From: a virus | DNA: 24,824 bases | IMG/VR virus record: IMGVR_UViG_3300050821_003111 | Direction: 5' to 3' (one strand) | The notes under the pieces: model-generated | Databases searched by the model: none | What the model was told of the DNA's origin: nothing | What the model saw: the letters and a program-made list of their open reading frames with translations, nothing else | Made by a program: the position numbers and the translations under genes | Shown: piece after piece, positions 2,633 through 3,666 of the stretch | Layout: every line of letters begins with the position of its first letter | How positions within the stretch are numbered: the stretch's first letter is position 1

Positions 2633-2860
2633 TACTTTTGATTCTCCTTTTCCTCTGATCCGATAGAATTAGAGGTTTGTTACAATCAGGGCGTTATTTC
2701 CCTGAAACTCATAATATTGGTGCTCTATCCAGGTGTCGACCCTGGCCGTTTCCCCGATCTGGAGATCTCCTCGGTTTATAAGACCGAGCTGCACGCCGGT
2801 GCTATAGAGCGATAGTATTTAACGATATCTTCTAGAAGGTACATACTTTGTGAGTCTATA

Positions 2861-2965
2861 TCAGAATCTCATAGCATAAAACGCGCCCTTCAACCAAGAT
2901 GACCATAAATGATAAGAGGCATTAAATGCTCTTCCTCGTCGCCACGCTCTTACAGTATATGGCAT
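2861..2965 (-). CDS. micro-protein, 34 aa, ALRF-motif family (MPYTVRAWRRGRAFNASYHLWSSWLKGAFYAMRF)
   Basis: Hand-translated. Aligns position-for-position with residues 1-34 of the adjacent 48-aa paralog. Ends immediately after the FYAMRF motif. Confidence 0.4.
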   Translation of the reverse strand: MPYTVRAWRRGRAFNASYHLWSSWLKGAFYAMRF

Positions 2966-3001
2966 TAATCTCTATCACCCTTTAATGTACTGGTAATGAA
3001 T

Positions 3002-3148
3002 TTAATAAGACTTTCTAAGAGGAACATAGCCTGTAAGTCGATACCAGAATCTTAGAGCATAATAGTGATTATTAAACCAAACTAACCATATTTTATAGGA
3101 CGCTTTATGTGTTCTATGTTTACTCCATAAGTCCACACTATACGCCAT
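3002..3148 (-). CDS. micro-protein, 48 aa, ALRF-motif family (MAYSVDLWSKHRTHKASYKIWLVWFNNHYYALRFWYRLTGYVPLRKSY)
   Basis: ATG 3148..3146 overlaps the TAA stop of the upstream secreted-protein gene (TAATG coupling). Paralog of 2861..2965 and of 4521..4661. Confidence 0.45.
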   Translation of the reverse strand: MAYSVDLWSKHRTHKASYKIWLVWFNNHYYALRFWYRLTGYVPLRKSY

Positions 3149-3666
3149 TAATTTCTATTACTCCAGGAAGAACTTATTTCCCTTTTCTCTAGCCAAATTC
3201 GTATTACTCCATGGCCGAGATGATTGGTATCAGCCGATGAATAAGTTAAACATAACTTATCGTTTTTATCATACCAATTATCATTTTTGTTATACCATAT
3301 TGTTAAACTATCGACAATACCTATTACAGCATTGGACTCATCAGGATCTCCAAAATCCTTCTTCATTAGAGCAAATATCTTCTCTGCGTCGTTTTGCTCG
3401 CCGTTGATAGAAAATGATAGGTATGTCAGATGTTCACGTGTAAATTCAGACCGAACCCAGGCAGATTTGTTATAAATAAGCACTCGGTTTTGCTCGCATA
3501 CTTGAGTACTATCTGTTTCTTTGTAACAGTCTGCATCTAAGTGCTTGTTTGTAAAGGAGATAATATCTTCATCTAGCTGATCCCCTTTTAGAGCGAAGGG
3601 CTTAGACTTGGCCATAATAACAACAGAAGATAATAGTAATACAAAAGCTAAGATCTCATTTGTCAT
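3148..3666 (-). CDS. hypothetical secreted protein, 172 aa, N-terminal signal peptide
   Basis: Hydrophobic N-terminus (ILAFVLLLSSVVIMA). Overlaps the upstream gene by 11 nt. Confidence 0.6.
   Translation of the reverse strand: MTNEILAFVLLLSSVVIMAKSKPFALKGDQLDEDIISFTNKHLDADCYKETDSTQVCEQNRVLIYNKSAWVRSEFTREHLTYLSFSINGEQNDAEKIFALMKKDFGDPDESNAVIGIVDSLTIWYNKNDNWYDKNDKLCLTYSSADTNHLGHGVIRIWLEKREISSSWSNRN

Follow-up and report, generated by a model that had tools for sequence, protein, structure and literature searches.

A 24,824-nt stretch of viral DNA (IMG/VR record IMGVR_UViG_3300050821_003111, referred to here as the window) contains, between a gene for a 172-aa protein and ssb, a stretch to which no gene has been assigned and in which a long tandem repeat lies. 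The question raised by this locus is whether the repeat is a DNA element, a structured RNA or a pair of genes. A sequence-only reading of the window had proposed the last of these, a duplicated micro-gene coding for a Trp/Arg-rich peptide, with a third member of the family encoded further upstream. The sizeable ORFs of the window are all on the minus strand, and the features discussed below are collected in Table 1. Five tRNA genes, and PHROG hits for a phosphoesterase, a T4-type RNA ligase and a nicotinamide phosphoribosyltransferase, are in keeping with a large phage, and an RNase P RNA-like gene is also present. The tRNA-Ile(UAU)-like gene next to the repeat folds as a cloverleaf (z = -3.2) whose extra arm is long, and it is conserved in relatives, with compensatory changes. 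A blastn search with positions 2200-4700 against 50,697 phage records gave no match. An ENA contig (ERZ27253508:k141_1621833) is identical to the window across the shared part, and the gene caller applied to it placed nothing between the 172-aa gene and ssb.

Table 1. Features of the window, listed in the reading direction of the minus strand, with the micro-ORF arrays last
Feature	Position	Strand	Basis or remark
Glutathionylspermidine-synthase-like gene	5806..4664	minus	small ORFs next in reading direction
Micro-gene C46, 46 aa	4661..4521	minus	homologues in three relatives; coding signature
Metallophosphoesterase gene	4204..3656	minus	after the small ORFs
172-aa gene, hydrophobic N-terminus	3666..3148	minus	its stop is overlapped by the ATG of B
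Stretch without called gene	515 nt, between 172-aa gene and ssb		
Two 183-nt repeat units	2817-2999 and 3000-3182	minus	gapless alignment
TAATG stop/start overlap of 172-aa gene and B	3150..3146	minus	sequence
Micro-gene B, 48 codons + TAA, intact member	3148..3002	minus	ORF list; in-frame homologues
GGGTGAT, Shine-Dalgarno-like site	2980..2974	minus	8 nt before the ATG of A; unit alignment
Micro-gene copy A, 34 codons ending in TGA	2965..2861	minus	TGA at 2863..2861
In-frame continuation after the TGA of A, 13 codons + TAA	2860..2819	minus	matches the C-terminal block of the family
tRNA-Ile(UAU)-like gene, 93 nt	2810..2718	minus	ARAGORN; bounds the repeat
ssb	2632..2264	minus	
Peptide deformylase gene	2182..1529	minus	after ssb in reading direction
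MKWW micro-ORF arrays	22490-21979, 16782-16104, 10390-10134	same strand as A and B	

Alignment of positions 2817-2981 with 3000-3164 gives 107 identical bases of 165 (65%) without gaps, compared with 43 ± 6 identities for random window pairs (z ∼10.7), and a repeat search of the window returned the same 183-nt spacing. The repeat noted in the sequence-only reading therefore stands, with its period of ∼182 bp corrected by the gapless alignment to 183 nt, or 61 codons. TRF did not report it on the window because the identity is below ∼70%. Each unit comprises a leader of ∼20 nt, an ORF and a few trailer bases. The two ORFs, B (MAYSVDLWSKHRTHKASYKIWLVWFNNHYYALRFWYRLTGYVPLRKSY) and A (MPYTVRAWRRGRAFNASYHLWSSWLKGAFYAMRF), are the 48- and 34-aa minus-strand frames described previously, and the remaining frames of the units are full of stops. 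As also described, the two peptides align over 34 residues without gaps, and 14 of these residues are identical. What that description missed is that the units remain homologous, in frame, past the TGA of A as far as a TAA at 2821..2819. The further claim that the divergence between the copies gives conservative substitutions does not hold. The 54 differences between A and B are spread 18/16/20 over the codon positions, and the pN/pS of 0.77 is about that of two shifted frames. Since this pair alone cannot prove coding, relatives were sought.

Syntenic contigs were reached via homologues of the flanking proteins in a large protein collection, and more distant members by running the profile on six-frame translations of distant relatives. 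The family of A and B (the AB family) now comprises nine sequences from seven sources, eight of them with DNA and from six phage lineages; the nine-member alignment consists of B and A of the window, L010, L013, L016a/b, L017a, P0019/L020 and P0021. In-frame homologues of B were found in L010, L013, L016, L017/L021 and L020. L010, whose SSB is 76% identical, has one copy of 51 aa that starts on the TAATG of a 161-aa homologue of the 172-aa protein and is followed by a tRNA-like gene. L013 (SSB 73% identical) is without the 172-aa gene and has one copy of 54 aa, which starts on the TAATG of the phosphoesterase gene and whose TAA touches the first base of a tRNA-Ile(UAU). The 172-aa gene was found in the window and L010 only, and in L013, L016 and L020 the phosphoesterase gene leads directly to a micro-gene. 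Two intact tandem copies are present in L016 (5633-5842, 69 aa, and 5845-6018, 57 aa), L017/L021 has a 61-aa copy with a divergent 60-aa copy before it, and in L020, a contig of 668 nt, a member directly follows the phosphoesterase gene.

The sequence-only reading had suggested checking whether relatives keep one or two copies upstream of ssb. They do, but not all of them: L010 and L013 each have a single copy, L020 has at least one, L016 and L017/L021 have two, and no copy is present in L014, L015 and L019, which keep the phosphoesterase gene and/or tRNA-Ile and ssb. No member was found outside a single lineage of uncultured, phage-like metagenomic contigs, in which the family lies between the metallophosphoesterase gene and ssb. 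A HMMER search of 1.84 billion representative proteins with the profile of B plus A gave three matches with the same motif (E = 6e-8 to 5e-4), all of them singleton clusters, of which one is L016b and one lies on L020. Nothing was found in IMG/VR with the 172-aa neighbour or a DNA motif, nor by a word-indexed protein search and an exact look-up with peptide B, nor in IMG/VR or the JGI metagenomes with the first profile (A3). A better profile (A7) detected one JGI contig, L021, from the phage that L017 also represents, and no member in IMG/VR or among 185,579 GTDB genomes. Synteny was lacking, and the distance too great, in the SSB relatives from IMG/VR (L001-L005) and in L008 and L009, which are relatives of the glutathionylspermidine-synthase-like gene.

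In the codon alignment of the eight sequences with DNA all frames are kept, and each length difference is a whole number of codons. Residues that are invariant are written with three to five synonymous codons each: one Arg as CGA, AGA, CGG or CGT and a second with five codons, Leu as CTT, CTC, TTA, CTG or CTA, Thr as ACA, ACT or ACC, Pro as CCT, CCA or CCC, Gly as GGC, GGG, GGA or GGT, and Val as GTT, GTA, GTC or GTG, while Ser at one aligned position is either TCT or AGT. In three pairwise comparisons with L010, pS (0.62-0.67) exceeds pN (0.30-0.32) in the ORF frame (p = 0.001-0.006), and in shifted frames the excess of pS is absent or marginal (best p = 0.047). These statistics are drawn from ∼50 codons in eight sequences, and on them the pattern is that of selection on the amino-acid sequence. 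Frame and start are also kept in six independent contig lineages, behind two different upstream genes. Thus, as judged from the relatives, in which frame, ATG and stop/start junction are preserved and third positions vary freely, the apparently non-coding repeat is shown to be a tandem duplication of a protein-coding micro-gene, as had been proposed, and B is shown to be an intact member of the family. The opposite outcome, conservation of the DNA but not of the reading frame, which the sequence-only reading had named as pointing to an origin or iteron element, was looked for in the same relatives, and what they keep favours coding.

The arrangement of the ORFs suggests how they might be expressed. 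A and B would be carried on one leftward transcript that runs into the tRNA-Ile-like gene and ssb, which is probable because no terminator-like site intervenes. B would be translated by termination-reinitiation at its TAATG junction with the upstream gene, and the homologues of B share this overlap, with the gene for the 161-aa protein in L010 and with the phosphoesterase gene in L013. A begins 36 nt after the stop of B and would be translated from its own GGGTGAT site. The 20 nt preceding the ATGs of A and B are 85% identical, which exceeds the identity of the ORFs themselves and fits selection on the initiation region. The earlier statement that these genes are coupled to the gene upstream is therefore borne out for B and for the third ORF (C46, below), both of which lie at stop codon junctions, but not for A.

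Copy A raises a separate problem, because its TGA takes the place of a Trp codon (TGG) that each of the seven other members with available DNA has kept. The peptide reads F-Y-A-M-R-F and then ends where the Trp should follow, so that the rest of the core is present in the read-through frame only. The TGA cuts off the best conserved block of the family, W-x-R-L-T-G-Y-V-P-x-R, and if it terminates translation A lacks this block, making it doubtful that there are two functional copies. The post-TGA frame of A reads YRLTKYVPSRRYR-TAA, where the counterpart in B is YRLTGYVPLRKSY-TAA. Within the 13 codons behind the TGA all seven of the seven conserved residues are kept, three of them via synonymous changes relative to B, and at the divergence seen between the copies the probability of such conservation under neutrality is 0.001-0.02. 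The tail of A thus appears to have been translated for most of the time since the duplication. Genome-wide recoding of TGA to Trp was rejected, as 13 of the 33 genes of this genome end in TGA and the large genes are intact under table 11. A and B are 46% identical and each is 35-55% identical to its counterparts in other phages; since the distance between the copies equals that to the copies of other phages, either the duplication is old or A evolved fast.

There is about an even chance that only B is a gene and that A is a dead copy without function, its 34-aa product being irrelevant. The loss of a Trp codon that the seven other members keep as TGG, the removal of the best block, the use of TGA as a normal stop in this genome and the position of A as the most divergent member (35-47% identity to the others) are all as expected of a dead copy. 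However, the constraint of the family is still seen in the 13 codons past the TGA, A keeps its ATG and a good Shine-Dalgarno-like site, and the same TGA is present in a second, independent Logan assembly (L007), which is 100% identical. These last points are as compatible with a very recent loss as with low-level read-through. Because the codons behind the TGA still look selected, we infer that the stop of A is either evolutionarily recent, giving a young pseudogene or a truncated product, or partly read through.

Variation between strains was seen in B. A 740-nt contig from another ENA assembly (L012) is 98.6% identical to the window. It is identical at 609 of 609 bases over the end of the phosphoesterase gene and the 172-aa gene, and its 10 differences all fall within the 131 covered bases of B. 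These give seven amino-acid changes at variable columns and two synonymous changes, and leave every conserved residue untouched. The pattern reflects either local diversification or a recombination event whose boundary coincides exactly with the start of B; an assembly chimera and gene conversion from A were also considered as the source of the variants. A diversity-generating retroelement was rejected, the 10 substitutions being of mixed types and not adenine-specific. By eye, A has the variant base at six of the 10 positions, a number not clearly higher than chance would give.

The third ORF of the earlier proposal, C46, begins 2 nt downstream of the glutathionylspermidine-synthase-like stop codon and ends in a TAATG overlap with the following ATG. 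It too may be translated by reinitiation, at the upstream stop/start junction. Homologues occupy the same place, upstream of the phosphoesterase gene, in L013 (4341-4484), L010 (132-275) and L016 (4589-4738). In its own frame pS is 0.65-0.80 versus a pN of 0.19-0.39, and in the other frames the two are near equal, the difference going in either direction. On this substitution pattern C46 is a conserved coding micro-gene of a second family. It shares with A and B the core K-[YF]-[YF]-A-[LM]-R-F, within a common region of ∼12 residues, F-[KR]-[GN]-K-[YF]-[YF]-A-[LM]-R-F, and a superfamily core, [KN]-[GN]-K-[YF]-[YF]-[AG]-[LM]-R-F, is detectable profile to profile. Alignment of the AB and C profiles with hhalign gives a probability of 79% (E = 1.5e-5), and the divergent copy L017b is intermediate, matching the AB profile at 94% and the C profile at 86%; reciprocal HMM matches between the two are weak (E = 0.0016-0.3). 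C46 is probably a distant paralogue in the same superfamily as A and B, with moderate support on the ∼12 shared residues. The shared core that had led to its being counted as a third member is thus real, but the kinship is distant rather than close.

The 12-mer TGCTCTAAGATT occurs exactly at 3048-3059 and 4615-4626 and with two mismatches at 2865-2876. With up to two mismatches allowed there are four matches where 4.1 are expected. Not being enriched as a DNA word, it was rejected as a regulatory element, in agreement with the earlier view that it merely represents the codons for A-L-R-F and is not a promoter element. The likeness that had been drawn between A, B and C46 and the MKWW genes of the same genome extends to their basic and aromatic character, but no homology was detected, and a common origin of AB or C with the MKWW peptides was rejected (hhalign probability 0.1-0.2%). 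As the MKWW peptides are equally rich in Trp and Arg and nevertheless score so low, composition alone fails to explain the link between AB and C. Homology of AB to a 47-aa ORF at 1522..1379 was likewise ruled out by hhalign.

The AB family proteins have 48-69 residues and follow the pattern M-[ASP]-Y ... W-x2-W-[FLY] ... [YF]-[YF]-A-[ML]-R-[FL]-W-x-[RIY]-L-T-[GK]-[YC]-V-P-x-R, the whole core of which B has in one open frame. M1, Y3, W21 and W24 are invariant in the nine-member alignment and are all present in both B and A, and the N-terminal M-[AS]-Y-S is conserved too. The ∼17-30 residues of the conserved block are contiguous, end in V-P-x-R and are followed by a variable tail of 5-26 residues. 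Predicted pI values are 9.6-11.5 for AB members and up to 11.7 for the C family, and the micro-proteins carry a net charge of +6 to +15 with 20-29% Trp, Tyr and Phe. No transmembrane stretch was found, the maximum Kyte-Doolittle mean over 19 residues being -0.64 to +0.57 for AB and up to 0.71 for C. A small membrane peptide (a type I toxin, or a holin-like or spanin-like protein) was rejected, since polar and charged residues break up every hydrophobic stretch. AlphaFold2 predicts helices with medium confidence (mean pLDDT 69-72). Pfam-A and PHROGs v4 gave no usable match (best E = 0.14-0.34, below the cut-offs), NCBIfam 20 and the PDB chains gave none by sequence, and Foldseek against BFVD and the PDB gave none that was usable.

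The conserved block is contiguous and not limited to one face of the helix, as might be expected of a peptide held on all sides by a partner. We tentatively propose, on the basis of composition and a medium-confidence model, that the product may be a helical, basic, aromatic, non-membrane peptide whose 17-residue block binds nucleic acid (RNA or single-stranded DNA) or a host macromolecule. A broader reading, which we consider rather unlikely, is that AB and C form a fast-evolving phage effector superfamily of variable copy number, in which the 17-residue block, fully conserved, acts as a linear motif that plugs into a host or phage machine and the N-terminal half diversifies. A pointer to such diversification is L012, in which all 10 differences lie inside B and none in the 609 flanking bases. 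The translation/tRNA apparatus is a candidate target, given that tRNA genes, the RNase P RNA-like gene, peptide deformylase, RNA ligase and Thg1 are nearby.

It is improbable that the ORFs are translated but that the peptide serves as a cis-acting regulatory leader or ribosome-arrest peptide. The arrest motifs of SecM and TnaC typically contain Trp, Arg and Pro, and the contiguous block ending in V-P-x-R, with a tail that varies in length and sequence behind it, would suit such a role. Against it, the downstream neighbour may be a second copy, a tRNA, another ORF or a glycosyltransferase/methyltransferase-like gene, no conserved hairpin that would sequester a downstream ribosome-binding site was found when the ORFs alone were folded as an alignment, and the conserved N-terminal M-[AS]-Y-S is not needed by an arrest peptide. 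An arrest peptide is therefore a weaker explanation than a binding peptide, because the downstream neighbour is not constant.

Still less credit can be given to the units as structured RNA, either as a 5' leader of the tRNA-Ile-like gene (processed, for example, by RNase P) or as a small RNA. This would account for the stop of the ORF abutting the 5' end of the tRNA, at a distance of 0 nt in L013, 4 nt in L010 and 8 nt in the window (where the TAA of the extended frame of A is meant), and the window does have an RNase P RNA-like gene. However, both units fold like shuffled sequences on both strands (z -0.5 to +0.7), eight homologues aligned and folded with RNAalifold give -0.55 kcal/mol without a compensatory pair, and the units have no Rfam match even at E ≤ 10. 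Moreover, L016 is without any tRNA, the micro-genes of L017/L021 lie downstream of the nearest tRNA, and L014 and L019 have the tRNA without a micro-gene.

It is hardly tenable that the repeat is a DNA element without coding function (an origin, iterons or a regulatory site) and that its ORFs are accidental. The position of the two direct repeats a short way upstream of ssb, where no gene was called, and the lack of codon-position bias between A and B would agree with it. Against it, the amino acids are kept in relatives as third positions and entire classes of codon change, and the copy number in close relatives is one or zero. The units are long, only two in number and free of short internal repeats, the cumulative GC skew is monotonic across the region with no inflection, and promoter-like and terminator-like sites are not above expectation. 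An iteron-type origin comprises three or more direct repeats of ∼17-22 bp, an AT-rich unwinding region and a strand-skew switch. With two 183-nt units only, no short repeats and no skew switch, this specific candidate was rejected. A duplicated coding micro-gene, taken together with the readings given above of its expression, of the stop in A, of the peptide as a binder and of C46, is very probably the best explanation of the locus as a whole.

An apparently non-coding 0.5-kb gap in a phage genome thus becomes two or three real genes that automatic annotation missed, and a micro-protein family and a probable superfamily are defined that are absent from Pfam, PHROGs, NCBIfam and the PDB. When the MKWW arrays are added, this phage lineage is seen to spend a noticeable share of its genome on tandem basic, aromatic peptides of 30-70 residues. 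The lineage is a useful test bed for the origin, duplication and decay of phage micro-genes, with copy A looking as if it has been caught just after a nonsense mutation. Taken alone, the AB family is one more small hypothetical phage protein and gives no pointer to a new mechanism.

Surveys of small genes in phage genomes have catalogued families of unannotated small ORFs. Other such surveys are exemplified by the global microbial smORF catalogue (PMC11364881). Like the families catalogued in this way, the AB family has members of fewer than 70 codons that are skipped by gene callers, is conserved in a narrow lineage, and is recognized by conservation of frame together with synonymous variation. 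No catalogued family in Pfam, PHROGs, NCBIfam or the PDB matches it, however, and it is represented by three singleton clusters among 1.84 billion proteins. Small ORFs are also interspersed in the tRNA gene regions of phages such as T4 and T5, and the AB micro-genes resemble these as tiny same-strand genes with overlapping stop/start codons between tRNA and early or metabolic genes. The likeness is one of arrangement, and adjacency to a tRNA is not universal in the AB family, L016 having none. Indolicidin, tritrpticin and lactoferricin are Trp/Arg-rich cationic peptides of 13-25 residues that are secreted or released by processing. The AB and C peptides share with them only composition (20-29% aromatic residues, net charge +6 to +15), as the phage peptides have no signal sequence, are predicted to be helical and have a conserved block of 17 residues. 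With SecM, TnaC and MifM the AB micro-genes have in common a short ORF and a conserved C-proximal block with Trp, Arg and Pro followed by an unconserved tail, but not a constant downstream gene or a conserved RNA switch, and their N-terminus is conserved. A further parallel in setting is provided by the MKWW arrays, which like the AB micro-genes are found in the same genome and on the same strand as tandemly multiplied ORFs of 32-47 codons for basic, aromatic peptides, although no homology between them is detectable (hhalign 0.1-0.2%). The AB family is therefore new to the databases, yet it is of a familiar kind, a small lineage-restricted phage protein.

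A 740-nt contig from another ENA assembly (L012) derives from a strain variant of the window phage, and its positions 1-740 align with window 3757-3018. There are 10 mismatches in the 740 nt, all of them within micro-gene B, the intact 48-aa copy of the tandem pair upstream of ssb, of which 131 nt are covered; the remaining 609 nt, spanning two upstream genes, contain none. The variant micro-gene B carries seven amino-acid changes, all at variable positions, along with two synonymous changes. Ahead of many micro-genes in this phage group there is a recurring start context, TAGA-N(1-3)-TAAT(T)ATG, which provides two of the reading frames with stop codons immediately ahead of the ATG. 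The coordinates of this and other features are collected in the table.

Coordinates of features in the window and on contigs of related uncultured phages
Feature	Window	Strand	Related contigs	Remark
tRNA-Ile(UAU)-like gene	2718-2810	-	L013 5197-5289; L010 about 1479-1567; L015 497-585	89-93 nt
tRNA CCA/ORF start junctions			L013 4336-4343, 5290-5297; L010 127-134, 1568-1575; L017 8150-8160, 8315-8332	
TAGA-N(1-3)-TAAT(T)ATG	2966-2973, 3149-3156	-	L010 1311-1321; L016 5836-5847, 6017-6040	
Hairpin upstream of ssb	about 2687-2706	-	L010 about 1770-1790; L013 about 5487-5507	
MKWW, MSWW or MTWW arrays	22490-21979, 16782-16104, 10390-10134	-		4, 5-6 and 2 copies, respectively
47-aa basic ORF	1379-1522	-	L010 3039-3422	
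55-aa and 43-aa ORFs	4221-4521	-		
806-aa protein	11100-13520	-		
RNase P RNA-like gene	8663-8932	-		

Between the tandem micro-genes and ssb, ARAGORN detects an unusual tRNA-Ile(UAU)-like gene, to which the Rfam tRNA model gives no match. Its anticodon stem measures 6 bp and its D loop 4 nt, the extra arm is long, and the CCA is encoded; the gene's conservation among relatives is accompanied by compensatory changes. Two more distant relatives (L014 and L019) have a normal tRNA-Ile(UAU) of 78-79 nt at the same place. In several cases 0-5 nt separate the CCA encoded by a tRNA gene from the start of an ORF (ACCA-ATCTT-ATG or CCACCA-ATG), and on L017 the 3' end of tRNA-Met recurs as the 16 nt ahead of the second micro-gene (CGGGAGCCCACCA). 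Taken together, these arrangements suggest that the tRNA 3' strand may double as a ribosome-binding site, or that the duplication unit may have included the tRNA 3' end. Closer to ssb lies a hairpin that reads TCAGGG-N8-CCCTGA in the window versus TTAGGG-N8-CCCTAA in relatives, a compensatory change that preserves pairing. It is preceded in L010 and L013 by an ORF of 63-65 aa, whose window counterpart has shrunk to an 8-codon remnant.

Other small ORFs occur elsewhere in the window. Those starting MKWW, MSWW or MTWW form tandem arrays of 32-47 codons per ORF and encode basic, aromatic peptides, which were unrelated by hhalign to the AB family and to the C family that includes the 46-aa micro-gene C46. 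A basic ORF of 47 aa that follows peptide deformylase is, on sequence comparison, another micro-gene of variable copy number; L010 carries three tandem homologues, each with a tblastn E-value between 4e-5 and 9e-5. Two small hydrophobic, membrane-like ORFs sit in the interval from C46 to the phosphoesterase gene; neither occurs in L013 or L010, and the source contig has no gene call for them.

The 806-aa protein has no PHROG match, and its precomputed Pfam matches are Vault_3 and MVP_shoulder, domains of the major vault protein. A further segment scores 106.3 bits, against a gathering score of 100, with the Rfam model for bacterial RNase P class A RNA. Model positions 1-367 are packed into only 270 nt, so this phage-like contig seems to carry an RNase P RNA-like gene of reduced length.
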